Below, in pieces: positions 371 to 55,377 of a stretch of DNA of 64,000 nucleotides; the first letter of the stretch is position 1, and every line of letters starts with the position of its first letter. The stretch comes from Cyanidioschyzon merolae (Eukaryota), in NCBI GenBank assembly GCA_000091205.1, contig AP006492.2; one strand, written 5' to 3'. A program made the translations under genes and the position numbers. Under the pieces are notes generated by a model, which saw only the letters and a list, made by a program, of their open reading frames with translations, did no database searches and was not told where the DNA came from.

Positions 371-2959
371 TCAACTATGCAGGTGCAGTCCTTCGTAATT
401 CGACACCAGCGAAGGTGGAAGCGGCACTAGTCGGGAACGTTGCGGAAGCCACGCGAGTTGCAGTGCTGGCTGCAACGCGAACGTCTCCGCGGGCGCTTGT
501 TGTCGCCGGCACAACGCAGCCGCAGGGCACAACATCGACACGCGCAGTTGCTCGAAGAAGAAGAGGCCTGGACATTGTCCGGGTTGTTCGAAATCGACGA
601 AAGGAGTTCGATTACCTGTGTACGTCACAATGGCAGTGGTTCCACCGTCGAGATCAGCAACAGTGAACCAGCCGGTGTTCTCGTGCTGCTCACCTGGGCC
701 GCAGAGCCTGCCCCAAAAACCAATACGAGTCTGGACAAGGTACGGTTCGTGGAAAACCTGCGCTAAGCAAGATAGGTAGCGGCACTGCAAGGTAGACGGC
801 GGGAGACAGTGCGCGATTTGTTGTAGAATACACTGGCGTAGTTGGGTGTACCAGAAACGTTCCAGGGGAGCCACGGCACTGGCTCCTGGTGCTAGTACGC
901 GAAGCTGGGAGGCTTCACGTTGTTCCCCTGGACCGTCAGCAGTACGTACGTTCGCAAAAGTTTCCGGGGATGGTTGGCCAGTTCGCGACGGAGAAGCTAG
1001 CGGCTGTTCCAGTGGCACTGCAAGGGCCGCAACGATAGCTGGCGCTAACGCCGAACTCGCTGCTGGTGCTGCTGGTGCTGCTGGCGAGCCCCGCAGCCAA
1101 CTCGTCCAGTGTGCACCGTACAACTGGAGACGGCGGCCGGGCTCTACGATACCGCTCGCGGCACGCTCAGGCAGAAAGAGGACTGCACTCATTCTATGAT
1201 CGGAGCTGGAGCTCCGGCAATACTGTCTGCTGCTGATGGCGCTGGCTCTGCGGGTATCGACGGATGTAAGCGGAGCCGGCGCTACCGCTGTTGCTGGTGT
1301 CTCCTCCTGCACGATAGCTTGGTCAAGTCCTCGGCGCGTTCTTGTTGCTAAAATGGCGCCATTATCGCGAACGAGTTCGCATAAGGTCGCAACATCCGGG
1401 TGTTGCTGAGCTGCGTCGGTGACTGCCCAGCGACAATCGTTCGAATTGTCCCTTGCAGATGCCACCGCTGCACCCGTATTCAAGCTCGGGCGAGCCGCCA
1501 GTTGATGCTGCGTCATGGAGACGCTTTCGGCGATATCCTCGACAGCAACAAGGGCAATTCGAAGCGGAACGGGGCGTTCGGAAGCAGCGCCCGTCCGTCT
1601 CGGGCGCCACAGGACCTTTTGCACGGTGACGGTGGGCGTAACAGAAGCGCTCTGCATTTCTGCGCGTTCAAGACGACTGAATAGCGACAAAGCAGGGTCC
1701 TCTTGTGATTGCTGGAGGAAAAGCAGGCGCCTTGACTCCCACTCCCGAAGCATTTTGGCGAAGCGGCTCATCGCGCATCGATAGTGTAGTCGGAGCGCCC
1801 ACGGCGCTCCGCCAGTGCCAGTTCGAGACAGATGCGCCTCACCTTGAGGCGAGCATGCTAGGTGCTGTCCGTCGAGCTCCAGAGGCGGAGGCGATTGCTG
1901 CTGTGTCGCGACCAGGCTCGAGGGCGATCGAGTCCCCGAACCAGTACCCCAACAGAGCCGGGAAGCAATCTTTCTTTTGCGAGCTGAAGACCAAGGCGTA
2001 CCGTCAGGATTCCCGAAAAACGTCTCCGCAAAAGGTGAGCGAAAAGCGGCATCGTCGCTCGTCTCGCGTGCTTCGCGATGCTCGCTTCTGGCGCCGTTTG
2101 AAGCAGGCTCTTCATCGCATCTGGGAGTCTGCTGGCTCATCGGTTCCGCTGAAGGGATGCGGATTCGTTTGCGGACGCTCTGTACGGAAATCGGCGGCAA
2201 ATGATGCATTCTTTCCTCGGATCGTTTTGTTCGGGCTGATGCAGCTCCGGGAGACTGGCCGAAAACAGCAATCCGCTGACTCAGTCGCGCTGGTGTCTTG
2301 CACCAACTCGACGGAATCAGGGTCCGCGGGTCATCGGCGTGGTCCACGGGACGGATGCCTGGACGGATACCGGCATCATCGGTGACATTATTTGAAACGC
2401 TACCTGTAGTACGGTCGCGCTGCAGGGCATTCTCCTCGGAGTAAGTACCAGCGTACTGTCTGGACGACAGCGAGTCTCCGAAGACCGGGGACGCATCTTT
2501 TGCACTGCCACGCTCCGTAGCGTTACAGTCTAGCGCCTGCATTTGCCGCCGGTTTCCAGCCGCATCCGCTTTTGAGCTTGCCCCATGATCAGGATCACTT
2601 GTGCGGACTGCAAGCAGCGTCTCGGGTGCAGAGAGAGCGGCGCCCGTTGAGGATCGACGTTTCGGCGGAGCGTCGTCGACCTCGTGTTTTGCACCGCCAC
2701 GCACTGTATGCGGCAAAGAATACCTACGGCGAGTGCTTCCACCTTTTTCCGCCGCAATGCGCACAGTAAACCGCATGAAGATGGAAGCTTTCCTAGAGTA
2801 GAGATTTCGCGGGAACGCGTCGGAGAGCGTCACTGCACCTGTTGTAAAGTTTGACGGCGGCGTATTTCGTCCATATTCTATAGCAACGCAACGGAAGCAA
2901 ACTTGCGAAACGTTTCGTTTGCAAGCAGAACCTGTGTTCCGTCGTACTGGGACACACAC
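371..2959 (-). CDS. Hypothetical low-complexity protein (Ser/Ala/Arg/Pro-rich), no recognisable domain
   Basis: Stop-free frame of 862 codons, far longer than expected by chance at this GC content. Opposite-strand ORFs over the same span are fragmented. The track start codon is GTG; the real start is probably an internal ATG. Strand and extent are uncertain. Confidence 0.3.
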   Translation of the reverse strand: MCVPVRRNTGSACKRNVSQVCFRCVAIEYGRNTPPSNFTTGAVTLSDAFPRNLYSRKASIFMRFTVRIAAEKGGSTRRRYSLPHTVRGGAKHEVDDAPPKRRSSTGAALSAPETLLAVRTSDPDHGASSKADAAGNRRQMQALDCNATERGSAKDASPVFGDSLSSRQYAGTYSEENALQRDRTTGSVSNNVTDDAGIRPGIRPVDHADDPRTLIPSSWCKTPARLSQRIAVFGQSPGAASARTKRSEERMHHLPPISVQSVRKRIRIPSAEPMSQQTPRCDEEPASNGARSEHREARETSDDAAFRSPFAETFFGNPDGTPWSSARKRKIASRLCWGTGSGTRSPSSLVATQQQSPPPLELDGQHLACSPQGEAHLSRTGTGGAPWALRLHYRCAMSRFAKMLREWESRRLLFLQQSQEDPALSLFSRLERAEMQSASVTPTVTVQKVLWRPRRTGAASERPVPLRIALVAVEDIAESVSMTQHQLAARPSLNTGAAVASARDNSNDCRWAVTDAAQQHPDVATLCELVRDNGAILATRTRRGLDQAIVQEETPATAVAPAPLTSVDTRRASAISSRQYCRSSSSDHRMSAVLFLPERAASGIVEPGRRLQLYGAHWTSWLRGSPAAPAAPAASSALAPAIVAALAVPLEQPLASPSRTGQPSPETFANVRTADGPGEQREASQLRVLAPGASAVAPLERFWYTQLRQCILQQIAHCLPPSTLQCRYLSCLAQVFHEPYLVQTRIGFWGRLCGPGEQHENTGWFTVADLDGGTTAIVTYTGNRTPFVDFEQPGQCPGLFFFEQLRVSMLCPAAALCRRQQAPAETFALQPALQLAWLPQRSRLVPLPPSLVSNYEGLHLHS

Positions 2960-5544
2960 ACAAGTGATCTTGGCCCGAAGAAAACTACTACCATACTCGC
3001 AAACGTTTCCGAGTCGGCATCGGGCTGGTCGACAGACGCGCGCCTCAATTCAGCGCGAGCGGGTGCTGCTCCTGCAGTACTGGAGATGTCTCCTGGGGAC
3101 GCTGCACCGCCCGTGTCCCGCGGCAGATTACCACTAAAAGCTGAACTAGCATCTTTGTTACCGCCTTTCGATGTTTTTGGTTGAATTCTACGGCCTCGAC
3201 AATCGAAGAGCATCCATAGGAGTTCAAGGATTCATACGTCATTCGAGGATTCTCGGTCGTACGCTCAGCGTGACTCCTTCGACGCGCTGTCGTTGGCATT
3301 CATGACGTCACTGGAATGAAGCTCATTCGGCTTGTCCGGGAGCAAGCGCCTGTAAAACAACAGCTATCGCGATTCAATGCATATGGACACGTCGCCGCTC
3401 TTCTCCTTTCTTTACGTGCTGTACGCTCGAATCATACATTCCTCCCAGTTTCGATCTTTCCGCTTCAAGGCAATGCGAGGGCGCAGCGATTCACGTCGCT
3501 CAGTGCACGACGGATAGCATGGCGGTGTGGCCCTTTGGCGACTTGTTCACAAGCCCACGCCGAAAGGTCATCGATCTTCTCAGGTCAAATGGTCTACTCG
3601 GTACGAGAGACAAAACCTTACTTTGTTTGTTGCCGTCGAGGATACCGCATTCTACAGCAGCACGAAGCCCAGTTCGGGATGTGTTCTGAGATGCTCCCAT
3701 CCCATCTATTTGCGAGGAAAAGGGTCCTGAACTTGGGCTGTTGCTATCTTCGTTATCGCCTCTGGAGAAGTGTGCGTCAAAGCTGTGCTTGAATGGGCGC
3801 AGACGCATCGAAAAAACTCGAAATGTGCTCCAGCGTCGATTTCTCTTCCGGTTCTTGTTTCATCGTAGACAACATCACGTTCCACAAATTCTCCATCGAA
3901 TAGAACAGCGTGTATATGCGAATGCAGCGGTGCGAGCACTCGACGGATACATCGCGTAATAGAAACACGGAATCCTTGGTTAATGCGCCGGACGCAGAAA
4001 CTAAGCAAGGCATCGTGACGCGCCTTCTGTATCCGTCAAGTTCATATGCCGAGGGATCAAGGCAAGGGATCACGCGTGACAAGACGGCGCTCGGGCCAGG
4101 GATTCGGCGCCAGTGTTGGAAACAAACATGTCCACCGCCAAGTCGCAACACTGGAAAAGGTGCATCGAGGCTGCATCCAAAGAGGATGGAAATGACAATC
4201 GTAGCGTATATTGTAACTTTGGCCTGTGCATGAAATGCGTTGACAGCAGCCGGAAGCACCCTGATCTGGTGTTTCGAGCAACCAACACCATCCCTCAACT
4301 GCCGACCCCGGATCTGGAGCCAGAAGAGAGCCTGTTGGATTTGCAGCCGTATACCAGAGAGAGCAGAAGGAAGCGGTTGCAGAGCAAGCGCGCAGCGACT
4401 GGTTTCGATGACATTGAGAAGAGACCCAAAGCCCAGTATTTACGCCCGAGGCATGGAATCTTTTCCATTTTATTCTACCATTGGTGCAGCTGCAAGCAAA
4501 GGACAATTCGTGTGCGGCACTTTGCTCGACGCTGGCTCCCCTGTACCCATGCGGCTGTCCGGACAAGATCGATCACGACTTGCTCCATCGCGTCCTTGAT
4601 TCCCGAGTCCATGGACGGGGACACAGATCAGCATTTGTTCACCGGCAGGTGTTCTGGTGACTCATTGTACATGCATGCCATTCGACTCTAGTCGCCGCCC
4701 TCCGCTGGACTACCGCACGTCGCTGCTCGTGATGACGCCCCCACCGCTGTCTGTACACACCGAGGCGCTCGGACGGTACTGAACCCCCAGACCGACGGCA
4801 CAGAGGGCATGCGGGGCCTCAGGCGCTACCGCAGCAAAGCGCTCCCTTCCCGTCTGGCGCGATGTTGTCCAGAGCGCTATGAGCATGGACCTCGCCCTGC
4901 AAAACTTTGTCAGCGTTTCATGCAGCGGCGCACGGCAGATTCCCTTGAAAGTCACCGCATCGAACTGTTTGCGTCGGTGAATACCACTATCGGCAGGCAG
5001 CGGTTTCAAGAACGCCACGTGGCTTTGCTTCTGCATGGTTCGCGCACTTTTTCCCGTGTGAAACCATGCCTCATCGCTTGCTGGCTGGGATTCCAGTTGG
5101 CCTCTCCGAATAGCGCAAAATCACCAGCTTACTTCACGAATAGTCGAACAGCTGCGTAGAGCCTTGTGGCTTGCCCCAATATTCGGGAGCTAAACATGAT
5201 CCACACAGCGGAAACGAGTCCTCTTTACACGTAAATAGCAGACAACATGAACGACTCCCACGGTGTTCTGTTCGGCAGCGTCGATGAGCGTGGCGGCTCG
5301 CCAAGTACCTTGGAAGCTGACCACCCACGTTGTACGGCGTAAAAGCGTCCTTTTTGTAGATAGACTACGCACCACTTGGACCTTGACGGTGTGATTCTTA
5401 GGTTGAAGTTTGCACTCGCTTCCAAGACCCGCTAGAAAAGACCCCCTAACTCGCTGTTTCCGAAACGCCGCGAGACCGGGAAAACGTCTCCATATGCGCG
5501 AGCACAAATTCTCGTCCTCGTCATTGTTCAGGGGTTGGTGGTTC

Positions 5545-5835: not shown

Positions 5836-8800
5836 TGCCCTCCGGGGTGTACCAAGTGTTCGCCCGGCAGGGCAACCGGCCTCGCGTTCGACCCATAGAC
5901 TCACAGGGCGCTCGTCGGCAACGAGCTCCGGCAGAGAGGTTTACGAACGTTGCATCCATAGACGCTCTGGGAACCCTACTGACCCTTTATGAATCGAAGT
6001 AGACTCTTGGGCGTTGCAACGCCGCGCTGGACCCAGAACTTCTGCATCAGGCTGTGGTGCCGTGCTTCGTGCCAGGGGTACCGATGATACCGTCCGAGGC
6101 ACGAAAGCCGAGTGCAAGTATCGCGTATTTAGGGCATTCGCATTCAATGCTCTGTGAACGTACTCAGACTCGTGCAACGTTGCACGGCCGTCCATCGCAA
6201 TGGGAGATGTGTATGCATGTATACGTGTCTATGTGCGCTTCGTTTACAAGCAACTGCACACAAGCCGCCCGCTAGCTGAGCAGGTCGACGCGATCGCTCT
6301 TCGAATCCTGAGTAACTTCATACAATGAAACACGATGATCGTCTACCAAATGCTCGAGAAAACTGTCCCCAGTGTTCGTATAAGGCGGTCCAGTCTTTGC
6401 GTTTTGCTGCAGCGTACCGTAACTGTGCCTTGCCCAAGGCGAGCATCCAACACATCCTCGACTGGCTACTGATTTTTTTCATCGAAAGTCTTGATCATTC
6501 CAGCTCAATTCCCACACTGAGGATGAAGCGATCCGTATGAAATTCCGCTTGACACAGTGCCGCTGGACGCTCCCAAAAGCGCGAGATATGCCCGGATGTT
6601 GATCGAGCCGCTCAAGTATCTGTGCACAAGGCACTGGCGCTTTTTCTTGTTGGTGGAATCACACCATAGCACGCCGCTCCCCGTACATCAATTCATACAT
6701 CGGTCTCTGTTCCACGCTCTGCGTTTCTATCTGTTTCAGCGGACACCTACGCTCGTTGTAGGTCTATGTCGCATTGAAAGCACCGATCGGAATCGTATCG
6801 AATCGTATCCTGCGATCGCTGTATGCTCTCGTCGAAGGATAACGAGCGCAGCCTTGGCGCGCTGCAGCACGTCCAGCGCCATAGGCTCCTATCAAATAAC
6901 ATGCCTTTTAGGCCAGTTCCTTTTCCACCACATGGAGCAAGTTATCGAATTTACGCTTCTTGTCTCTTTCGAAATGAAACCGTTGGTGATCCCAGCACGC
7001 TCTCATGCAGCCCCGCCAAAGATCGTCTGTCTCGGCCATTTCGACGCTCACGGACGGTCTCTTGCGTAGGATCTCTCCCACAAGTCACGATTTCAGGTCT
7101 AGAAAAGTGATGTTACAACGTGCACAGGGTGCGCTCCATGATGCGCTGGAGAATGACCCGTATACGCTTTTGTTTTTTGAGGTTGTTTTGATACCTGTTG
7201 GTACCTGCGCTATGGATTTTTTTCGACCAACAACGTCCCGCGGCTGCACTTCGAGATATTCCACAAACCATGTATGTAAATCTCCGATCCTGTGATCAAG
7301 CTGTTGTGCGTCTTACATTTCGCGCATCCGTTGTGTTGGCGCGGGAAAGCTTCATCGAAATATGGCAGAGGAATTTGGATAGCTGGCAGCCCCGCGGCTA
7401 TAACCCCTACCAACAGTTGCTCGACGATGTGCACCAAGGCGAGGGACGTCAGGCGAGCCTTCCTCAAAGAAGAAGCTACGCGATACCTGTTGGCGTCCTG
7501 CATTTCACTTTTTGTAAGACCTTCCCGTTCATGAGTTTTTGTCGCGAGGCCGTGATAGCGTTTTCATTCTGAACTTTCCCCACCAAGAGCGTTTTCTTCT
7601 GGTCATATCTTGACCTGTTTTCGGAAGAATCGTTTCTTTTATTGGCCTATGCTCTTGATCTTCATCTTTACTTGGTCGGGTGGCATGTATTTAGGCGCCA
7701 TCCTCCACTTCCGATCTTTCCTCGGAACTGAGGCACACTGGGTACATGGTAGCACTGACAAACGCCTTTTGTGCGGTAACGTCTGCGGCATCTTACGCAT
7801 CTTTTCGTCAGATGCTTCGCGAGCATGCCTTCGAGTCAAAGCACGTCTTTTCGCTGGCTCCCGCGCACGGGCAGCGGGGCAACACGGCAGTTCGCGGTTG
7901 GGAAAGTGGTAGAAATCGACCATGAAAAGAACGAATTGCGAAGGAGTCATGAACTCGAATGTCTCTTCCATTGAACCGCGAGTGTAAATACCGCATTCGA
8001 CAATGGAGCGAAGACGCATTCGGCAGGGTCAACCAGGGAGAACAGACTGGCACGAAGCGTAGCTGAACGCCAATTTCAACTGCGTATTCCCTGACAGCTT
8101 TGGTGTCAAGGTAATCGTTGTTTCATTGGAGCAGAAGAACGGAATTCGAGAGGGCAATTTCCCGAAATGCCTCGATGAATGATGCAATGAGGAACGATCT
8201 AGTCCACTACGTGATTTGCAGGCGACCACATTATAGTATTGGTGCTAGGGCTGACGTCGTCGTCAGGCTCGTTTGTCTCTTCTTGACGAACTGCGGTTTC
8301 ACCCTCTTGGAATGCTCATTCGCAGATCAACCATGTGGTCCGGGCCGAGACTTACCGAGTGAGGCGAATACGCTTCCCTCCTGTAACAGGAGTTCACGTT
8401 CCAGTGCGGATTCGGTCGTGTGTTGTTCAACGCGATACGGTGTCCAAGAGAGGTGTGTTTTTCTCTTTGTACGTATGTGTCTTTTCATGACATTTCGTAT
8501 CATGGGCGCGCAAACTTCACATTCTGAGCTTCTCAGGTATTATGTCTTAGTGACAAAACCGCGTGTAAGGTACTGGCGAGGAGACTGTCTTATCGATAGA
8601 GTCTAAGTTCCAATTTGAGTGCACGATGTTCCGAATGACGATTACCATGAAGGGTACTTGATCCACCTTTCGACCGCAGAGTATCTGATATATCGAAGCA
8701 AGGCCGCTTTGTCGCAAGGTAGCAGTAGCGGCATAAACTTTTTCCGCATCCTTGCTCCGATCTACAGGATGCATTCCTTTTACTGCGAATCTGTACGAAG

Positions 8801-24392: not shown

Positions 24393-27300
24393 TGGTGCGG
24401 GGCTTTAGCGTTGCTCCTTTGCTGAGCATACCATGCCAATGTTCCGCTCCAGACGAGAATTCAGTGTCACTTCTCCTGGCCTCTGATTCGTTTTCTTGCA
24501 AGTCTGTAGCGTTCCAGTGCGATGCCTCTAGTGAGTCACCTACGATGTCCTGGAACATTCGCGCACCTCAGAGCAGTTGGACGCGGCGGAAGCGCGACAA
24601 GCGGTAGCATAGTATTCGGGGCGTTCAAGCCTCGGTGCAGATTGTGCTAGCGCAAAGTTTTCCCGGGAAATAACACACGAGAGCGAGCATCATACCCTGG
24701 ATGACCTTGTCATGTGATGTTCTGTCAGTGAATTGTCGAACATGTCGCGCATTCGCCTCTGTTTCAAATGTTGCTTGTCTACCGATTTCAGAGAGCACCT
24801 GTGCCCATGTTGCGTGTTTGTCGTCCGGAATGCATCGATGCGAGAACTGGACCATCGAGGCTGGCGCTGGTTGCGCGGTCTCCTCGACACAGAGGGTGTG
24901 TAGTCATCGCGCGCTACAGCACATCCAGCCCCGCAGGATACCACCAAATGATGCGACTTGTCGGTGAGATCCTTTTCCAACTCATTAAAATCGTCGGTGG
25001 ATGCACGCTTCTTGTCTCCGTGCAACCGCAACTTGTGCTACTCTGGCGCGGTCTCAGGTATTTCAGCCAAACATCGTTGATACGAGTTATTTGGACGGTC
25101 CTGTAAGCTCCCTGAATGAAGCGTAGAGAGCGACGCCATCCGTGCTGGAAACGGTGCTGAGAGCTTCGAGGTGCCGCCTGATACCTGTATTCCAGTTATT
25201 GGCACGCCGTTTGGTGCTCACGATTCCTGACTTGCGATAATACCCATTCCTGAAGAAGCTGAGAAGTTTCATCTGATTTCCGTTCAGGTCTCCGGCGCCG
25301 TGCTTTTGATTCAGAGTTATGGCGACGGACAAGACGTCCTTCGACAAGGGATCCACATTCATCACGGGGTACTCCTGCTCAGTTACCTTGAAATGTTAGA
25401 CATGCGTCCGTCGGTCGGCTCTGGTCTAGGTATCACGGAATGCATGCAGATTGATATTCCGTCCGACTCCATCGTACCTGTAAACTTCTTTGCTTTTCTC
25501 ACTATGAAGAAGATTCCTTGAAGGAGTTCCTCTAATGCCGTTGGTGAAGACGTTCGAGTGCTTCATACTTGTGTGCAGAGACCAGTGGTAGCCCACTGAG
25601 GAGGCCAATCAGCACAGGACAACATTGTCTGCGGAGTTGTACTGGGTCTCGATGTGCCGTATGGGAAATACATCGAATAGATCCCCGAGGAAGTTGGGCG
25701 CTCGAATCCAGGAACCAAGTCTGCTTTGCTTAGGAGCGCTCAGTGCAGGGAATCTCAGAAGCGCAGTATTCGAAAAAGGCATGTATCCCGTTTCAAACAT
25801 GCTTCGGATACGAGTTCCGTGTACTTGATTCCGAGAGCAACGCCATGAGCTTGGACGATCGGAAGCGAACTCGCTTCCACTGCGACATCTGTTCCGTACT
25901 CGCGAGCTCCTCGATCGTCTCCGCAGTCACCAGCTCGTCGTTGACCGTCATCGATACTCCGCGAATGCCGTTTATCAGTCCCAACTTAACTGGGACAGTA
26001 CGTTGAGCGCGCAACGCCTCCAGTGTACGCTGCACGAACCAATCGACGGTGACCAGCATATGGTTTATGAGGCTGGTATGATGCTTTTGGGCACCTGCTC
26101 TGTAGACACTCCGGTTACCGACGTGTCGCGCCAATGCCTCCAGGTATTCTGGGAAGTGTGTATGTGTGCGACGCTCTAATCCGACGATCATGCGGTATGT
26201 CGTCTTCTGTCTGGAGCATCAGCTGTGTTGTCGCATGCTGGTTTGGTCTAGGTATGCGAGAGGAAGGTCGGTAGCCAGCTGTTCCGACACCGGAACTCCT
26301 ACAAGCAACTGCTTGATGCGGTGCGTCCTCGCGAGCGGAGCCAGGCACGACATTCTCGAGTATAGAGCGACGTGATCCCCACTGGCGTCTTGCATTGCAC
26401 TTTTTGAGAAATTATTCCTGGTGAGGAGTTTTGTTAGGCAGGCCTCGACAGTGATTTCAGAGTACTGTTTCCGCGTAAACCGTTCCTCCTGTCGATCTTT
26501 GCTTGGTGTCGTTTCGCGAGGATTTTTCTCTTCTTTGTTCAGGAGTTTCCTCGCCTTCTCATGACTTGGCGGGCTAGCATGGATACTAACGCACTACTCC
26601 GTATCCTTTATTCCGCAGTATTCAGATCCAATACGTAGACGTGGACACTGAAACTCGCCTGTTCTTCGTTTGTTTCTCCCATTCCTCAACTACCTCTTCG
26701 TCACCTGGTCCGGGTCGACCACGTCCGTGGACCGAAGCGCGCCGTTCCGCTTTCTCCCGCGTACGAGCAGCGAACCAGCACTGCAATGCACGGCAGGTGA
26801 ATGTGTAGAACCAGTCGACGCAGAGGGGTTCGTCGAAAAACCGTATCACAGATACGAATGACTCATCCATAGAAGCATGAGCTTGAATATGGCATTCGAA
26901 AAGGAGAACACGCCTCGGACTCGATTGAACTAGGGAGAAGATGCTAGCACGAAGAAGTGCTCAACACGAATCGCTGATGCGAACCGCTTCAGCGCATTTG
27001 AGTGATCGGAGTCCATGGTATCTACGAACAAGACACAAGAATCTGGCGAGCACAAGTCACAAAGCGCGTCAACGAAGAATGCGGTGTTGAACAATTCAGC
27101 CCTTGCAACAATTCGTAGGCGAACACACCATAAAATCGTTGTTTGGGCTGGTGTTGTCGTCACGCTCGCTTGCCTCTGCTTGACGAACAGCGGTCTTTCC
27201 CGTGTTAGGTACCGGTATTCAAGGCTAGCATTTCCCTAGGCAAGTCTCACCGAAAATGAAGAGCTCCCATACCTCCTGTTGAGAGCATTCGCATTTCAGT

Positions 27301-29338: not shown

Positions 29339-30759
29339 GGGAAGCACTACACGGGAAACTGCTGGGAGCACAGTTTGGTACTGAAGAAAAACACCTCGAC
29401 GCTGGAGCAGTGGCGGAGAGCGGAGTGGTGTTGTCGGCGCCGTTGCACCGAGCGCGTTCACCCGATAACAAATCGCTTGCGGGTGCTTTACAGGGCTGTT
29501 GTCTGCTGGGGTGCGTATGACGCTGGCGTGGGTGCGGATCGTACGGAATTGAGTGCCTGAGGAAGTAGCAACTCGATGATGGATTCTTTCGACTTTCCCA
29601 TTAATCTTTGGAAGGAGGCGACGCTTTGCGTATCATCGAAAGTTTGGCTTCTTAGCAGAAATTCTCGTTAAGCGGATGAGTCTGCCGGTTTCGTGCCTCA
29701 TGCTCCCTGCTCCAGTGGCGGTTGCTATGACGAGACACGAGCAGTTTTTCTACAAAGCAGTCTTACTCTGGGACTAGGAGCGGTCAAGTTGCATCCAGAA
29801 GTCGTCCTGGTCGCGGTGGTCTGCTGGTGTATCGCTTCGCGTAGTCGCAGGCAGGGGGTGTATCTGCGCAGTCTCCGGGCTTCCAGCTTGATAACGAATC
29901 CCGAGCTTGTGCCGGGTGAACCACGTGTCGAGCCGACGCCTTTCGGGGTATGATAATGCCTTGCTGTCTATATGCTATGTCCGCATCGGCGTTATAGGTG
30001 CTTTTACGGGGCTTATGGCTGGTTCGGTGCACGGTGGATCATAGGCAATGATTCGTACATGTGAAAGGAGGTATCGGGAGCAGAGCCTGACCCTAGCATC
30101 AAGCATGATGGACGTTTTTGCGATGACGGATATCCACCGCGCAATCCTGGATCCCTGCTTCATGTAATCCTCCAGTCGAACAAGAACGAGGATCGCATGT
30201 TTGCATTTTTTGACGTCAGAAGGATCAATGATCCTAGACCGCAAAGAAATTGGGCGAAAGCATTCGTCTCTAGGATCAGGTGCACACACGTCTCAGATGA
30301 GAGACAAACTAGAGGTTTTCTGGGGGATTTTCGCGCGCGCTGGTCAGGCGTGCGCATCATGGGATGATAGGGTGTAAGAAAAACCATGTTTGATCCATTT
30401 TTTCTCATTTGAATGCCGGGAGCCTGCATCATGGATCAGGCGCATACAAGCACTCGAGACAGGGAGCGCATACGGCAACGCGTCTCTCTCGGTTACATCG
30501 ATTTGTCCGGTATCCGCAGCGGTGCACTGCAGCACACCAATGGGGGTGTCGAATGCGCATATCCCGCCATTCGCCCTGATTCCCGTCATGAAAGTGCACA
30601 GCTCGTACTCAATCGCTCCAGGTGCTTTGCAGCTGCTTCTTCATAGGAGCGGTGCGTGGTTCGTGGAACGCGCGCAACCTGCGCGTTCCGACGCTCACTG
30701 CACGTTCAAAACCTGGTGAACGCTGCGCAGAGAGGCTCGCGAATGCCGGTCGTGTTCAT

Positions 30760-40281: not shown

Positions 40282-41814
40282 TTAAATATCTAGGCCGCTC
40301 ACCAGCGGGCTGTTTCGCTCTTTCAGTGCCGTGATAACGGTGTTCACATCCTTGTCTCCTCGACCGGAACAATTCACAACAACGATCGGGCGCGCTCCTG
40401 CGGGAATCGTATCGTTGATGCGTTTCAGCGCTGCAAACGCATGGCTCGTCTCGAGCGCGGGTAGGATGCCCTCCAGTCCCGAGACCAACTGAAAAGCATC
40501 CAAAGCCTCTTCGTCTGTCACCGAGAGGTACTCTGCTCGCCCAGTGTCGCGCATAAAGGCATGCTCAGGGCCGACGCCTGGGTAATCGAGACCCGCGCTT
40601 ATGGAGTGCGCCTCTACGATCTGTCCATCGTCGTCCTGGAGCAAGTAGGACATGCTGCCGTGGAGGACGCCGACCGAGCCCTTTGTCAGTGTGGCAGCGT
40701 GTTCGTGTGTATCGAGGCCTCGACCTGCAGCCTCCACCCCAATAAAACGCACACTGGGTTCGTCCACAAAGCGGCGGAAGAGACCGATAGCATTGCTGCC
40801 GCCGCCGACGCAGGCCACCAAGATGTCCGGCAATCGACCAGGGCCGTGCCGCTCTTGCACTTGCTGGTATACTTCCTCACCGATCACGTAGTGGAAATCG
40901 CGCACCATGGCTGGGTACGGGTGAGGTCCGGCTACGCTGCCGACCACATAATGCGTCGTGCTTGGGTTTGTCACCCAGTCGCGGATGGCATCCGACAGCG
41001 CATCCTTCAACGTTGCCGTCCCGGTGTGTACGGGTCGCACTTCGGCGCCTAGCAAACGCATCCGAAACACATTCAGCTTCTGACGTTCCATGTCGCGGGC
41101 ACCCATGTACACAACGCAAGGCAGTCCGAAGCGTGCACACACGGTGGCGGTGGCAACACCATGTTGGCCCGCGCCCGTCTCCGCGATGATGCGGGTCCTG
41201 CCCATGCGTCGCGCTAGCAACACTTGACCGAGTGCGTTATTGATCTTATGGGCACCTGTATGCAGGAGATCTTCTCGTTTCAGGTAGATTTGCATACCAG
41301 ATCCATCCGGACGCGCAAAGTGAGCCGTGAGACGCTCGGCAAAATAGAGCGGCGTCGGTCGACCAGCAAAGTCTCGAAGCTGTTGTGCTAGCTCCTGTTG
41401 AAATGTCGGATCTTTTGAGACCTTTTTGTAAGCTTCTTCCAGCTCTTCAAGACACGATATAAGGGTCTCTGGCACAAACTTACCGCCAAAAGGCCCGAAC
41501 TTGCCACGCGCGTCCGGCACGCTCGACCGGTAGCGTCCAATGCGGCCGCGCAGGTCTGTCACGCGTTCTCCATGCTCGATCTCCTCGGGAACGACGTTTT
41601 CGGTCGCATTGTCCGCAGCCACGGAACGTTCCGGTGTCATGAGCATGCTAGGCAAGAACACGGTACGGGCAGCGGGGTTTTGCGAACGCGCACGTCGTCC
41701 AAGCGTGCGCCTGTTGTCCACGCTACGACCGCTGTTTCGCGTGAAGCGTTCTTTCGCAAGAAAGAAGCTAGTCGTGTTTGATAGTGGTGCGACAAACGCT
41801 GTGCAGTTTAGCAT
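40282..41814 (-). CDS. trpB: Tryptophan synthase beta chain (standalone, PLP-dependent) with about 100 aa transit-peptide-like N-terminal extension
   Basis: [28 protein letters not shown] (PLP lysine), [20 protein letters not shown], and C-terminal GRGDKDV. No fused TrpA domain. N-terminus is R/S/T-rich. ATG at 41812-41814. Confidence 0.9.
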
Positions 41815-41838: not shown

Positions 41839-43977
41839 CTAGGTACAGTGCAAAAAATCCAGTGTCAGCTGAAAAACAAAGAACGCCCTCAGCGTCGAAC
41901 GTCGCCGGTAGTGTGGAAGAATGGCGGTGAACGCGTCCGAGCCAAATCGTCTCGAACTGACGTGCAGACGCCTCCGCGTCTTTTTGGACCTGCCACCTAC
42001 TACTGCTTCCAACTTCTTCTCATATAATTCAACTTGAAAGCATTGTCCAACTAAATTCCTTCTTGTCCATTCTGGAGGTCTTTTCTCCTGCACTGCACAT
42101 CCCCGTATACTGACGGCGGCATTGAAGTCGCGGTTCACAAACTACATACGTTTCTCGCCATTTTTGGTACTTACCATGAAAGTAGTCCTCGAACGTTGGC
42201 CTTCCTTTCTATTTGCTCTTCCGTCATCGCTCCGTACTTTTTCATATCCGCAGGGCTCGGCTGGCATTTTTCTATCTCGACCCTCTGAAGTGTACACCCC
42301 AACACATGGTGCGTAAACGTTGTTCGGAACTCATCTACAGGTATCGTAACAAAACGCCGTGCGCACTCCTTGTACGTTCTTGTCGTTGGAGCTGGCGCAG
42401 TCCCTTTTTGGGTCTTCCATCGCCCTGCCCCATACGCTACTGAGAGCCTCTGACGTTCATCCTCCTTCAAGGCGCTCAACTGATTGAAAAAGTTGGCAAA
42501 CGCCCGCTGCTTCCCACAATACAAATTCATTCGCAGACGAGCCCACCGAGGCTTTGTATACTCCTCCCACAGTGCACCCCAATGAGCAACGAGAACTTCC
42601 ATGAATTTCCGAAAGGCTTGAAAGTCCGCTCCTCGGCTCGTGATCTCTCTCATAGCTTCCAGGTGATCCCTCAGTCCTGCAGTCCACGTCTCAATTTTTC
42701 TTGCATTCATGATTCCCGATTCTCGATAGTATCTCGCTCTCGAGAACCTCAAAAGACGCATGTCTTTCTGACGTAGCTTGCCGTCAATGCCATTTTCTGC
42801 ACGCTTGGGTACAGCGACGGCTATGATATTTGTGTTTCCGGGGTCCGCGCCAATGACAAAGTCATTATCCTCTACCTCCTGCGTCGCAGGATCCGCGTCC
42901 TTCTTATCTTCATGCTTCACCAAGGACAATATCGAGGACGGGCCAGGACGATCTCTCTTCAACCGCCGATAGAGTACACACATAGCTACTTCATCGGTTT
43001 CGATTATCCCAGTGAACTACGTTTGCTTGTTCATTTTGAGACGTTTGAAATCGAAGATATTCTTCCCGTACGTCTCCCGGTTTTCGCCGGTGAATTCCTC
43101 CCTGCTAACATTGAACTCCGGACTGATCTCCTTCATGATTCTGTAAAGGACAGCGGAGTCGATAGTCACAAAGTGTGACTTGATGTTGCACAACGGAACG
43201 ACGTTGAAGCGCTTCCCCATTAGGACAGCCTTCCATCTCTCCCATTCTTCATTTTTCCTCACTCAGCTTCACCTCTGCCTGGCGTTCGAGCTCTCGGTCC
43301 AGAAATACGAAATACCGCAGAATGAGGCGATAGTATCTTTCCGTATCTTTTTTCAACTCTGATATCTTTGCTGCGGGATTCGCCAGCCCCAAGAATGCAC
43401 GGTGCTCTTGTATAGCCGCGTGGATTACAGAAGCTTCATTCGTGCTCCTGCGTGGCGTCTTCTTGTGGACAAATTCGATCTCATCTTCATACTTTCGATC
43501 GTTGGTGATGCCATTGGTAATCGCCCATACTCCTTTGCGAGACAGGCCCGGGTATAGCGCAAACACGGCGCGTATCATGAAACGCTCCGGGTTCATAGTC
43601 AAATGGTTCCTCAGGTTCGTGAGTTACTCCATTGCCCCATAGTCGTACATACCCCCGTCACCCTTGTATCGAGTAAACTCAAAGGTGTAAATGGGATGTT
43701 TTTCGTGGAGGCCGTGAACCCGCTCATTTTCCCTCCGCGCTTTCTCTGTACCAAGCATCAGGCGGCGAATAAAGGTCATGTCGAAAACCTCATCCGGGAC
43801 CTCGACTGTTTCCATGTGCGCCACGTCTTCGTCTATCTCCCTCGCCAACTGTATCAGTCCTGACGACGCCCTGACAATACTCGTGGAGTACGAGTCGACA
43901 CGTTTTTTGATAGCGTCTCGCAACTTTTCCCTGTAGGGATCCTTGATTTGATTCAGGAGAAAGGCTTTCACCACCAT
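41839..43977 (-). pseudogene. Fanzor/TnpB-like (OMEGA, RuvC-like RNA-guided endonuclease family) gene, disrupted by two in-frame stops and two frameshifts
   Basis: Five collinear minus-strand ORF pieces: 43977-43624, 43602-43249, 43262-43017, 42983-42171 and 42138-41839. RuvC-I-like [17 protein letters not shown] sits in piece 4. A ...RRFVTIPVDEFRTTFTHHVLGC... segment (typical TnpB region preceding the zinc finger, which is degenerate here) follows. RuvC-III MNRDFNAAVSIRGCA sits in piece 5. Pieces 1/2 and 3/4 are each separated by a single in-frame TAA/TAG. Junctions 2/3 and 4/5 are frame shifts, and tested GT-AG splicing did not restore the frame. Confidence 0.55.
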
Positions 43978-44520
43978 CTCGTCCTACAGTTGTCTCTCTT
44001 GCCGCCTTCGATGTTGGGCCTCCCTCTTCGGTCCTTCTTCTCTTCCTTTTCTTCTGGACTAGGCAATGTTTTTTGTTTTTTCTGGCAGCCGGCGACCATG
44101 GGCCTGCAGGATCGTCGACTTGCTTTTTCATAGCAAGTCCACGATTTTTTTCGTTTTTTCGAGAAAGAACGCCCTTTGAAGCCTTCTGTTATGTATTGCG
44201 AAAAAACACTTGACAAGACTTGTTCGAAGTTTGAAACACAAATGAACTGAAAACTGTACTTGGATATGAAGTCAACGGAAATACATCTTTTACCTTAGGG
44301 CTACAAGCTAGAGATCAAGATCGCGTTTCCCTTCACCGGCGACATGCGCATAGCGTCAGTTGACTGCCTGATCTCCCAGGTGCGCTCACCGAGCGCGATT
44401 ATTCTTTCAGATGACAAAACGTTGACATTGACCATGGATCCCAGAATTCGGAATGGATAATGGCTTTCGGGAAAGCGTCCATGATGAAGCAACTACATCC
44501 AAGTTCCATTACCCATACTT
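41839..44520 (-). mobile_element. Probable transposon relic carrying the Fanzor/TnpB-like gene (approximate boundaries from the GC drop)
   Basis: Lower-GC block containing the Fanzor remnants plus about 500 bp of AT-richer sequence upstream of its ATG. Ends and TIRs not resolved by eye. Confidence 0.35.
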
Positions 44521-46919
44521 CATCTCGGATATTCTGGTCGTTTCATACGTTCTGTCGTGTGCCGAGTGCCTACCGTGAGCACCCGCCGTAGCGCGTATAC
44601 CGCTGAAGCAGATGCTGCACGGAGACAGGACGGCGCTGCCGTACCGCTGAGGGCGTCGAACCGAGGCGCTTGTGGTGCATGCTGGTATGCCTGCGGCATG
44701 CTTTTTTCTGCCTCTATGCGTCCAAGGTACCGGCTTGTCCGACACTGCTATCCAGAGGAGCCTTCTCGCAGCTAGCCGTTCGCATATGTAACGTGAACTT
44801 GTTCACGCGTGCACCAGTGTGCTACTGAGACCAGCCAGGTACGCGCAGCTGGGTTCATGACGAACGTGTTTCATTTTCCCACTGAGCTCGGGCAATACGC
44901 AGATCGGCTCATACATGCTCTGGAACGCGCTGCGGAAGCGAACGCCGCCATTCTGTGGCTATCCGGGAGCAACAGCTGATTCGAGTTCATGGACTTTGGT
45001 ACAGCGCTCGGCTCCTTGTCAACGATGCTTGTCGTTGGCACCGAGGCTCGGCCGCTGTGCCTCAGTCGTTTGCAACGCGGCACCGAGAAGCGCGCTGCTG
45101 TACCATGTGTCACGAACGGGATGCGTGCGTTCGCACCAGGCACGACAGTGCACGCAAGCTGTTACGCATCGACTTCGGCGCTGCGGCCTCGGACGACTCG
45201 GCGTGCACGCATACCCACAGATGACGTGTACGTTGTAGCGTGCACCAACGACGACGTCGTTACCCTAGTTGTATATGAGATATACTCACCGGATTCCGAC
45301 TTGTATGTTTCGTACGTTCTTCATCAGGGATGTCAAGAACTGTAGTTTCAATGCCAGAGACACGAATCTGCAAACGTATTCGCGACTTTCCGAAATGTTG
45401 CTCGTGGCACAAGGTTAAACGTGCTCGAGCCGGTGCCTTGAGAGGCAGCGCAACGCCCTCGCATCACAATCTGACGTTTGAAGTGAGGTCGGCGCTCGGT
45501 GTATCTCAGGGCAAAGGCGTTCTTCTTTCGAGGAAAACCCGGCTGCGCTTGTTTGGTCCGCACTGGTGGGGAACGTAAGCTTCCCGACGAGAGCTGAGGC
45601 TCATTTGCTGTCTGCCAACTTTGGTGATGCATCCGAGGAAATCTGGTTCGATGCAGCGGCCTTGTATCAGCATCAAGCGCACGCTAGCGCTGCGGCAGCT
45701 GTTCGCGTTTCACTTGGCTGATTGCCTCAGCCGCCTGTATTCGAATGGATCACGAGCGTTGCTACGGTGATTTCGCTTGTACCGTAAGTCTTGGTCGTAA
45801 ATTGTTATCACGGCGCATGTCTGTGGGTTTGTTAGCGTCTCGATTCACGTAATGACATGGTGGGGATATTCGTTCTTCTTTGCCGTCGCCATTTTGCATG
45901 CCATATCCTGGGGTGGCCTATTCCAGAGCACGTGCCCAGACACAGCGCTTGCTGACGAACGATCGAAGGAATCCAAGCGCTTGTCCAAATCCGCATATGC
46001 AGGTGTGCCCGCAAAAGAGTGTCTCCAACACTCTCTGCGGCCATTTGTACGTTCTGTCGGCCTCAGCTCTGTAGTTACCCGATTGCATCGGAGCTTGATT
46101 GTTCCAGCAACGCTGCTCAATTGCAGTGTGAAACACTTGCATTGCTCTGACGTCGGATGCTGCTGAGATAGCGGGGAAGATCCGTGCCATTCTAGCTGAG
46201 ATAGCGAACGTTATGGTGAACTCCTGTCGAACACTTGTTCGGTATAAGGTGCGTTCCAGTACGACTCGGCGAGCGCTGCGCAGCTTACATCACTTTTCAG
46301 AAAAGAGACGTCGACGAACCCTGCAAGAATGACCGAGGCAGCGCAAAGAAAAAAAGCCAGCTAGCGTCTGGGTGACGAGGTCCAAGGCCTCGCTACCGAT
46401 CCCAACGCAGCTGCCAACTAAGAGATATTGCGAGAACCAGGTGAAAGGTTCAAAACTCGACTGGCAACACTCGTTTCAAATCAGCACACGCCGCAGTTGA
46501 TGTTGCTCTTCAAACGATTGCAAGCGTAACGAATCAGAGGAGCTGGTGGTTTTTACGTTTTCGCGTCGATTCGTCACACCACTTGCCTGTAGACATACGT
46601 AGCAACGGAGGCTGCTCCGTGTGCAATCACAAGAGCCGCGATCAGGGATGGCTATCTTCCAACGACTTGCAAAGCACCGTGACTGCAACACATGCGGCAG
46701 GGTCGACCGATGCCAGCAACAGCAGTTTCGCTTAGGCGGCCGCGGGCATGCAACCTGCGTCAGTTGCACTGCAGCCAGCTGTGCTTCCGCTCTGGCAACA
46801 GCGTAGGTGTGCGTGTGTGCGCTAAAGTTTACCGCACACGTAGCACATCAGGTACTTGAAGGGACTGCTTGGAAACCAAGCGTGGGTAAGAATTGGGACG
46901 GTTGAATTAATTGGTTTTC

Positions 46920-53901: not shown

Positions 53902-54405
53902 ATGCCATATCCGACCGAAATCGCATCTACGAAAGGGTTCCTAGAACGTCGCTATCCGTCTAAAGCAGAAGAAGCTCGGTATGTTTTTTTGGTCGATGAG
54001 ACTTTCCTCGAACGGAATGGTCGGAGCGTACATGTGCATTCGCTGAGGGCACCGGTTGCATATACGATCGAATTCGAAGAGAACTAAGACGTCATCATCT
54101 TTCCTAGCTGCAATGGATTCATGTCGAGGCCTCAGTTTCGCAAGTTGAGATGGCTCATACAATAGCACCCTCTTCGTCGAATCATAGAAGACTTTTCGCT
54201 CAAGTCTGGCAACGTCCGCCTATTGAACAAGGCAGTATTTCACCATTGCCATTGCGTTTGGGCTTTTGCCAACGCAATCGAGATAGAACTGCCGTTCATT
54301 CCTCCGTACTCTCCTGGCTTCGATCCCACGGGAGAACTGTCTTCTATCATGAAACGTAATGATCAATCCACTGAACGAACCGCGGAAGCGTTCCGCACGC
54401 GGTGA
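53902..54405 (+). pseudogene. Tc1/mariner (IS630-family) DDE transposase remnant, frameshifted
   Basis: ORF 54223-54405 encodes ...AIEIELPFIPPYSPGFDPTGELSSIMKRN, matching the LxFLPPYSPDLNPIE..W..LK signature around the third catalytic residue. ORF 53902-54087 in the same frame has YVFLVDETFLE, resembling the second-Asp region. An intervening ORF is out of frame. Sits in a low-GC island. Confidence 0.45.
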
Positions 54406-55377
54406 CACACTGGAGCACATTTCGTTTTCTTCTGCAATACCTCTACGCTCCGGAAATGTTCTCACCTTTGGGTGTAAACAATAACTTTCATTTTGAAAAA
54501 TAAGGAATGACCTGGGCTGTACACTTTTGAAGCTCAAGACGGAAGGCAGGCTGCGGGGCGCTTCGGCGAAAGAAAAGCACAGAGAGCCGAGAGAGCACCA
54601 AATGGCACGGAGAGCACGTGCTCGACGGCTCCTCGCATCGGAGAGTTCCACCAGATACAACAAACGCAAGGAGTTTATATGCGGAGACTACAACGGGGCC
54701 ATCAGTGTCAGACGATGTGCGGTGCTGGAGACAAAACCCGCGGAACTAAGGTGATCCGACTTAATGGGGCACCCTCTAAAGCTCTCGAAGTGTACACGGA
54801 TGAATGGAAGCTGGCGGCAGTCACCCGGTCGGAAAAAGGCTGGGAGGCGTCTGCGCGTGGATAGATATATTTACTATCTATCGACGTCAAACGTTTATCA
54901 TTTTACCGATCGTATAGAGCAGTCGCCTAAAGCAAGTGATACCCGCCGATGCGTCCCGCTACTTACTCTTGATCCCACATTCAGTGAGCACGAGTGCCTC
55001 ATGACCCGAGCAGCTCAAATATGCCTCCGAAACGACTGTAAGGAGAAACGAGCGATACACTGACTAACGAGCACAACCCTGCTTCCGTAACGACTGCATC
55101 GGTATACGAGCACACATAAAGCGTGAAACGGAGAAAATACGCTCTTACGGGATCCAAATACCCAGCCGGCTATGCGCCGCTGAAGAGCAAAGAAGCGCAC
55201 GGCACTCCGGAAAGCGACCTAACGGCGTAAGGTTGTCGTCAACACGCTCGCCTTTGCGAAAGTGGCAAGTCAGAGCGCTCCGACTCTTGGACAGGGTATC
55301 GTGGTCTTCTAGGTATCGACGATGTGGTGTGGCTTGCGTTGACTTTTCGGGTGTCTTCTACTGGAACTCGTATCCCG

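Follow-up and report, generated by a model that had tools for sequence, protein, structure and literature searches.

A probable pseudogenised copy of the Fanzor1 element CMe-1A in DNA of a Cyanidioschyzon merolae-type red alga

Three Fanzor1 proteins, PpFz1 of Parasitella, SpuFz1 of Spizellomyces and GtFz1 of Guillardia, have been characterised experimentally, and the Fanzor protein class was reportedly explained at the functional level in 2023. The repeat CMe-1A of Cyanidioschyzon merolae was catalogued earlier, with about 150 old copies, each with an identity of about 80% to a consensus of 3,169 bp (PMC3627910, Bao & Jurka 2013). The consensus has an ORF of 734 aa and no terminal inverted repeats (TIRs) or TSDs, its 5' 635 bp constitute a separate repeat, TE-N2_CMe, and a few intact copies are reported in C. 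merolae (PMC3627910). Composites of Tc1/mariner and Fanzor1, e.g., PGv-1 and PUl-1, are described in the same work (PMC3627910). The logic of a RuvC nuclease combined with a guide RNA from the 3' end of a transposon is shared with ISDra2 TnpB and the IS200-IS605 OMEGA systems; ISDra2 TnpB differs in being prokaryotic and about 400 aa long, and in having the RuvC-II residue at the canonical position, a C4 zinc finger and a TnpA Y1 transposase as a partner.

We analyzed a stretch of DNA of 64,000 nucleotides (the window), in which a first-pass annotation had recognized a multiply disrupted Fanzor/TnpB-like gene at 41839-43977. We assign a probability of about 0.93 to the reading that this region is a pseudogenised copy of CMe-1A, i.e., of an old DNA element that carries Fanzor1 only ('solo') and belongs to red algae of the Cyanidioschyzon merolae type. 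The element belongs to the repeat family catalogued in 2013 and, in this respect, was already known.

Comparison with the CMe-1A consensus and its paralogues

The CMe-1A consensus was taken from Additional file 2 of PMC3627910 and aligned to the window by blastn. Consensus positions 648-3126 correspond to window positions 44397-41922 on the minus strand, with 84.6% identity over 2,489 bp, and 78% of the 3,169 bp is covered. The best protein match, obtained by tblastn, is 83% amino-acid identity to the CMe-1 consensus protein over 361 residues; as a sequence match to a published protein, this is far beyond chance.

All five collinear minus-strand ORF pieces listed by the first-pass annotation were found at their coordinates with the peptides that it had quoted (Table 1). 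The TAA at 43624-26 separates pieces 1 and 2, which share a frame; the TAG at 43017-19 separates pieces 3 and 4, which share a different one; and the frame switches are located near 43257 and near 42177. The pieces are real, but the interval 41839-43977 does not delimit the repeat: its body is longer, extending from 44397 to approximately 41884, and the ORF begins at 44131. The remnant starts with the ATG at 44131-44129, and the position of the consensus stop codon reads TCG (41940-41938). The 3' end of the element was set at GAGGGCG (41884-41890), and about 75 paralogous loci are alignable across 44399-41894.

Table 1. Coordinates of the Fanzor1 relic and of its features in the window.
Feature	Position	Strand	Remark
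CMe-1A-type Fanzor1 element core	41884..44397	minus	consensus 648-3169
TE-N2_CMe-like 5' module fragment	44410..44666	plus	consensus 2-256, 86.8% over 257 aligned columns
734-codon Fanzor1 ORF remnant	41938..44131	minus	codon-wise alignment to CMe-1A consensus ORF
ORF piece 1	43624-43977	minus	quoted peptide present
ORF piece 2	43249-43602	minus	quoted peptide present
ORF piece 3	43017-43262	minus	quoted peptide present
ORF piece 4	42171-42983	minus	quoted peptide present; 270-codon piece, the longest
ORF piece 5	41839-42138	minus	quoted peptide present
1-nt deletion, frameshift 1	near 44082	minus	N-terminal basic region
1-nt deletion, frameshift 2	near 44025	minus	N-terminal basic region
Premature stop TAG	43984-43986	minus	consensus Tyr50
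Premature stop TAA	43624-43626	minus	consensus Tyr170; strain-specific
2-nt deletion, frameshift 3	43255..43259 (near 43257)	minus	consensus alignment
Premature stop TAG	43017-43019	minus	consensus Val373
In-frame 3-nt deletion	42698..42702 (near 42700)	minus	other strains have an extra G at 42701, giving a frameshift
4-nt deletion, frameshift 4	near 42177	minus	consensus alignment
Premature stop TAG	42142-42144	minus	consensus Glu667
RuvC-I catalytic Asp, GAC in GADPG	42843-42845	minus	retained; aligns with SpuFz1 D383
RuvC-II catalytic Glu, GAG in VDEFRT	42330-42332	minus	retained; aligns with SpuFz1 E541
RuvC-III catalytic Asp, GAC in NRDFNAA	42127-42129	minus	retained; aligns with SpuFz1 D606
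Conserved 3'-terminal segment, candidate omega-RNA scaffold and right end	41884..42040	minus	overlaps ORF end; degraded here

The locus shares with CMe-1A the layout of a 734-codon ORF whose stop codon falls within the conserved 3' segment, the occurrence of many copies about 80-86% identical to the consensus, the lack of TIRs and TSDs, and a separable 5' repeat. It differs from the CMe-1A consensus in that positions 257-647 are absent, positions 2-256 are inverted, and the ORF is ruined by nine lesions. The inverted 5' module fragment abuts the Fanzor body. The same module, of roughly 270 bp, occurs independently and is found near other copies in either orientation, and many of the 75 related loci begin at consensus position 648; the Fanzor core (648-3169) can thus be separated from the TE-N2-like module as a unit of its own. 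Since the inverted fragment takes the place of the 5' 647 bp of the consensus and no TSD or TIR marks the ends, the 5' boundary of this copy is uncertain. No terminal inverted repeats were found at this element. Two resemblances between its ends were considered and rejected: a perfect 12-nt inverted match (41883-94 with 44645-56) is most simply a chance match of the inverted TE-N2 fragment to the mutated right end, and a 22-nt direct similarity between both ends is likewise most simply a chance resemblance.

The closest intact relatives of the encoded protein (P0046 and P0047; 38-40% identity) are located directly downstream of a gene for a DDE_3 (Tc1/mariner/IS630-type) transposase. Intact composite elements are present in metagenomes (L080-L084), and in one of them (L084) the transposase-Fanzor pair is enclosed by 32-nt TIRs. 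Using tblastn, we found no match to a DDE_3 transposase remnant within or next to 41884-44668. Unlike the Tc1/mariner-Fanzor1 composites, this copy has neither a transposase relic nor TIRs, and it is a Fanzor-only derivative. The window contains three other Fanzor relics, which have DDE_3 tblastn matches in the order transposase, then Fanzor.

For a sample of paralogues, we fetched 75 related metagenome loci. Their identity to the CMe-1A consensus is 78-90% (median 86%), and the full 734-codon ORF is present in none of the approximately 75 loci; the best paralogues (L004 and L007) encode 722-752 aa, are truncated at the C-terminus (...ENFIG) and are without the consensus N-terminus. Judging from these sequences, the CMe-1A family is old and largely dead in the sampled lineage. 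The first-pass annotation had proposed present or recent activity of the family, and this is unsupported because of the distance of the copies from the consensus and the lack of a full ORF among the sampled loci. It had also considered that intact paralogues may exist elsewhere in the genome; the sampled loci contain none, and the few reported for C. merolae are those of Bao & Jurka (PMC3627910).

Lesions, the 3' end and the neighbouring gene

Lesions were mapped by codon-wise alignment to the 734-codon consensus ORF of CMe-1A. Of the nine lesions, four are indels that shift the frame, four are premature stops and one is a deletion of 3 nt that keeps the frame (Table 1). The two in-frame stops and two frame changes that had been noted within 41839-43977 are all present, but the copy as a whole is more heavily damaged. 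Because of the two 1-nt deletions near 44082 and near 44025, the N-terminus (MKKQVDDPAGPWSPAA..., SPEEKEEKK...) is scattered over three frames.

Three other assemblies (L001-L003) also contain this locus, and eight of the nine lesions are common to all. The codon at 43624 is TAC (Tyr) in L001-L003, the TAA being confined to the strain of the window, and an extra G at 42701, specific to L001-L003, breaks the 270-codon piece in those assemblies. Since the three other assemblies carry the same indels, the four indels are unlikely to be assembly errors. In the comparison of L001 to the window, 38 of the 55 differences fall within the 2.9-kb relic (1.3% versus 0.37% in the flanks); thus, the divergence of the relic is about 3.5 times that of the flanks. 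The strain-specific lesions and the faster divergence of the relic are indicative of neutral decay. The catalytic codons survive, yet a full protein from this copy is impossible because of the four frameshifts and four stops.

At the 3' end, conservation stops sharply at ...GAAAGGCG(TT), and in 35 independent loci it is followed by unique flanks. The conserved segment is about 150 nt long and contains the consensus stop codon; in the alignment of paralogues, its conserved blocks follow each other in the order ...GAGACGnTTTGTCTAGGGCGCG...CCGCCACTACTGTACACC...CGTTCGACTTTCGAAAGGCG(TT). SpuFz1, PpFz1 and GtFz1 likewise have a conserved segment at the 3' terminus, non-coding or overlapping, that stops at the boundary of the element, and the segment 41884-42040 may represent an omega-RNA scaffold. 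The RNAalifold consensus was weak (7 pairs, -1.6 kcal/mol), and a hand-drawn four-helix model, although 83% paired, showed no covariation above that of shuffles. The z-scores of MFE folds were between -0.7 and -2.1, with two positive values, and were not significant; no Rfam family was matched in the window. Folding and aligning the 3' region, as the first-pass annotation had proposed to do with an intact copy for locating an omega-RNA, revealed a conserved and sharply bounded 3' end and no covariation in favor of such an RNA.

An intact element would be expected to encode a Fanzor1 of 734 aa with REC, WED, RuvC and TNB domains and the D-E-D triad of RuvC. By analogy with the characterised Fanzor1 systems, transcription of its omega-RNA would begin at the 3' end of the ORF and run on through the element's right end, the flanking DNA supplying the guide part. 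The resulting ribonucleoprotein would cut matching DNA flanked by a TAM, which may contribute to persistence of the transposon (restorative homing). The copy in the window, with its broken ORF and mutated 3' RNA-like segment, is drifting neutrally.

The downstream neighbour of the relic is a gene for a plastid-type tryptophan synthase beta (TrpB), an intact ORF of 510 codons in the standard code. The protein is of the cyanobacterial type with an N-terminal extension, a type that fits a plastid-bearing host, and its homologues include cyanobacterial and plant proteins at 72-74% identity and metagenome sequences at 82% and 74%. Together with the match to the CMe-1A consensus, this TrpB probably puts the window in C. 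merolae or a near relative; no protein in NCBI or UniRef clusters with the TrpB at 90% or above, and the host may therefore be related to strain 10D without being 10D itself. No tRNA or rRNA in the window helped to place the host. The right end of the relic (at about 41884) is located 69 nt upstream of the TrpB start codon (ATG 41814) on the same strand, and a cis effect of the relic on TrpB expression is possible given this arrangement.

This proximity is compatible with a reading in which the protein gene is dead and a part of the relic has been exapted, either as a promoter or 5' UTR of TrpB or as an omega-RNA-like segment used in trans by the Fanzor of an intact copy. The 3'-terminal segment is, moreover, the best-bounded conserved part of the family. 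However, strain differences are found within 41876-42004 as well, and nothing shows constraint; the window copy carries mutations in the long-range complementary blocks of the family (AGTAGTGG/CCACTACT) and in the terminal hairpin; and no intact Fanzor is present among the approximately 75 loci. We consider exaptation to be highly improbable.

Even less credence can be given to the idea that the Fanzor gene is functional and only looks disrupted owing to introns, programmed frameshifts or reassigned stops. All catalytic codons are retained, and a GTAAGT...TAG stretch does exist at 42142-42174. However, the frame changes are deletions of 1, 2 and 4 nt compared to a contiguous consensus ORF, rather than GT-AG-bounded insertions, and where this copy has the putative intron, 34 other copies have homologous coding sequence. 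The in-frame stops include TAA as well as TAG, whereas the neighbouring TrpB is intact under the standard code. Furthermore, the lesions are polymorphic between strains, with an additional frameshift in the longest ORF piece of the other strains, and divergence is elevated. It should be noted that the 33-nt stretch, taken as a candidate intron, was rejected: it is homologous to consensus coding codons (...V S T T S D G K K R M E...). The first-pass annotation had itself found that GT-AG intron models fail to restore the frame and that joining across this stretch meets TGA. The latter holds, and the former agrees with the consensus alignment, in which 42142-42174 is coding.

Fanzor1 identity, catalytic residues and the zinc finger

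The assignment of the pseudogenised CMe-1A copy to Fanzor1 was derived from family profiles and from the fold of a relative. Pfam searches with each ORF piece, with the 710-aa concatenation and with intact relatives gave nothing significant. The lone match, below threshold, was to a Cas12f1-like TNB domain at NRDFNAA, and the precomputed Pfam label was DUF8286 only, and weak. Neither phmmer with the 710-aa reconstruction nor a profile of eight sequences found a match in PDB. A protein search returned 48 relatives, all of them metagenomic, including many fragments with 56-78% identity and a few intact proteins of 676-702 aa with 38-40% identity. A second, profile-based search widened the set to 139 proteins, and an exhaustive search with a profile yielded 6,656 representative clusters at E<=1e-3, 939 of them at E<=1e-30. 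The family is thus large, with thousands of members in the clade containing CMe-1. Many ORFs of the clade are intact (600-700 aa), and some are located within mariner-type elements with a conserved 3' tail. On metagenome contigs, prokaryote-style gene callers annotated the region of the relic as five small genes.

An alignment of 114 sequences (A2) was used as an hmmsearch profile against PDB, and it matched PpFz1 (E=1.4e-18), SpuFz1 (3.1e-11) and GtFz1 (0.007; 6.8e-3). These profile-Fanzor1 alignments bring the TDG, DPG, DEF-x-T and N-R-D motifs into register, and none of the TnpB chains in PDB passed the A2 search. Thus, of the HMM and BLASTP comparisons proposed in the first-pass annotation, the 114-sequence profile reaches Fanzor1, but the single reconstruction and the 8-sequence profile do not. 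The structure was modelled on P0044, an intact relative with 40% identity, and not on the broken copy of the window. The AF2 model (pLDDT 91.7, pTM 0.89) has the bilobed REC/WED/RuvC/TNB fold. In a Foldseek search of PDB, the top matches of this model were SpuFz1, PpFz1 and GtFz1 (E ~1e-17 to 1e-15), with TM scores of 0.55-0.73 over about 670 aligned columns, i.e., the full length (0.65/0.73 for SpuFz1); Cas12f was next, with E ~1e-4. The full-length fold and the aligned catalytic D-E-D are shared with the three characterised proteins (PDB 8GKH, 9CEU-9CF3), and sequence identity to them is only 11-15%. The profile and fold matches together specify as Fanzor1 what had been described as a Fanzor/TnpB-like gene.

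The RuvC-I Asp and the RuvC-II Glu are invariant in the 114-sequence family alignment, and the RuvC-III Asp is kept in 113 of the 114 members. The metal-coordinating residues of SpuFz1 are D383, E541 and D606 (PMC10432273), and the D-E-D residues of the window copy are in register with them, in agreement with the canonical TnpB/Fanzor order reported from the ORF pieces. The catalytic Glu of Fanzors is relocated to a site just upstream of the zinc-finger position (PMC13565253). As in SpuFz1, PpFz1 and GtFz1, the relocated RuvC-II Glu is found in a D-E-[FY]-x-T-[ST] motif. The Glu of VDEFRT, previously regarded as an uncertain RuvC-II residue, aligns with SpuFz1 E541 and therefore is, by sequence register, the relocated catalytic glutamate typical of Fanzors. 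The concern that the DPG, DEF and RD matches might occupy mutually incompatible positions was dispelled by alignment to real Fanzor1 sequences, in which they are in register.

A prokaryotic TnpB/IS605-family gene, present as a contaminant or after recent horizontal transfer, is the least credible alternative and is refuted by the profile, fold and consensus matches: in its favor, Pfam yields only the sub-threshold Cas12f1-like match, whereas Fanzor1 ranks far above Cas12f with no TnpB chain among the matches listed, a protein of about 700 aa whose N-terminus is basic and NLS-like suits Fanzor1, the element occurs in approximately 75 loci among eukaryote-type genes (WD40, MIF4G/CBP80, GRAM/VASt), and it matches a red-algal repeat consensus.

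The Fanzor1 clade of CMe-1 departs from the described systems in one respect. A C4 zinc finger is part of the Bao & Jurka motif (PMC3627910) and is present in SpuFz1 and TnpB. SpuFz1 and ISDra2 TnpB share this TNB/NUC CCCC finger, whereas the whole CMe-1 clade is without one. No C4 (CCCC) zinc finger was found between the catalytic E and the RD motif in the 114 family members. The number of cysteines between the catalytic E and D is 0-3 per sequence, a CxxC is present in 1 of 114, and a single position, in RGLLWC, is frequently Cys (76/114). The degenerate C-x9-C pair reported earlier thus has its counterpart in a clade-wide lack of the finger, the window copy having two Cys. The missing zinc finger is a clade-level loss within a clear Fanzor1 fold and gives no ground to exclude homology.

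The object described here is an ordinary pseudogene copy that reveals nothing new on the mechanism of Fanzor. The appropriate treatment in annotation is to mask this region as a pseudogene of CMe-1A (Fanzor1) and not to represent it as five small genes. Decayed Fanzor1 elements from at least two lineages are scattered over the host genome: the 64 kb of the window contain four relics, of which three have remnants of a mariner-type transposase. A single lead is of wider interest, namely that a Fanzor1 clade which is large and partly intact has no zinc finger; this lead concerns the family rather than this dead copy, and specialists may have spotted it already. If the proteins of the CMe-1 clade are active RNA-guided nucleases, the zinc finger would be dispensable for Fanzor1 function, a proposition that we consider rather unlikely; if true, the clade would offer a natural variant useful for engineering and for understanding the TNB domain.

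Fanzor1 relics and their two-gene relatives

Beyond the main relic, i.e., the pseudogenised copy of the published Fanzor1 element CMe-1A, the window contains further Fanzor1 remnants, each preceded by a remnant of a DDE_3 (Tc1/mariner-type) transposase. We compared these with P0044-P0047, a group of intact Fanzor1 relatives from metagenomes, or with CMe-1, the CMe-1A protein. The second relic is almost full-length with a heavily broken reading frame, and its transposase remnant lies directly upstream; this relic belongs to a lineage other than that of the main relic. The third relic has an internal deletion, and the transposase remnant ahead of it was detected at 28.6% identity over 189 aa (E=3e-20). 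Its order, DDE_3 transposase followed by Fanzor1, is that of the intact metagenomic elements L080-L084 (contigs of 3.8-4.9 kb), which consist of these two genes, the second encoding a Fanzor1 protein of 698-699 aa. One of these elements, L084, has 32-nt terminal inverted repeats starting TATAC/TATTC.

Features in the window outside the main Fanzor1 relic
Feature	Position (strand)	Comparison
Third Fanzor1 relic and DDE_3 relic	6510-7530 (-), 7967-8530 (-)	Fanzor1: 35-48% identical (aa) to P0044-P0047
Second Fanzor1 relic and DDE_3 relic	24675-26572 (-), 26903-27232 (-)	Fanzor1: 30-37% identical (aa) to P0044-P0047
TE-N2_CMe-like repeat, stand-alone copy	29625-30167 (-)	70.5% identity to CMe-1A consensus 15-554
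Tryptophan synthase beta gene (TrpB)	40282-41814 (-)	Intact, 510 codons, cyanobacterial type
5' module	44410-44666	CMe-1A consensus 2-256/270
DDE_3 fragment, then C-terminal Fanzor1 fragment	54184-54399 (+), 54500-54934 (+)	Fanzor1: 44% aa identity to CMe-1 consensus; 69% nt identity to CMe-1A consensus 2737-2964

Variable modules of the element

The repeat TE-N2_CMe, which makes up the 5' part of CMe-1A, has a similar copy in the window with no attached Fanzor body. The 5' module itself (~270 bp) is found at L015, L027, L049, L051, L058 and other loci, as well as in the window; it occurs in both orientations relative to the Fanzor body and may adjoin it, lie ~400 bp upstream of it, or lie downstream. 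The outer end of the window module (44645-44674) and the right end of the main relic (41883-41913) resemble each other over 22 nt in direct orientation, and over 12 nt they match perfectly in inverted orientation.

Just 5' of the RuvC-I motif, a 78-bp unit (CMe-1A consensus 2117-2196; window ~42848-42921) encodes a 26-aa acidic/lysine-rich repeat, present in 1-5 tandem copies among the paralogues (L004-L079) and once in the window copy.

Genomic setting

The main relic ends 69 nt upstream of the TrpB start codon, on the same strand. TrpB is 72-74% identical to Nostoc proteins (BLAST coverage 77-81%), and its N-terminal extension of roughly 100 aa is presumably a plastid transit peptide. The GC content of the window is ~52-60%, except in the relic bin (49%), where GC skew and AT skew are both strongly negative on the plus strand. 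Across positions 1-64000, no tRNA genes were found by ARAGORN, and no Rfam families at the gathering threshold.

Zinc-finger site and 3' tail of the clade

In the 114-sequence family alignment, the segment from the catalytic Glu (RuvC-II) to the RD motif (RuvC-III) has no C4 zinc finger anywhere in the clade; a conserved R-G-L-L-W-C-x-S-T motif occupies that site (P0044 residues 569-636). Despite this absence, the predicted fold of the clade remains Fanzor1-like. In L080-L084, the 3' tail of ~110 nt appears, by eye only, to be strongly conserved, whereas the proteins are merely ~65% identical between elements; this tail looks like a good site in which to search for the omega-RNA of the clade.
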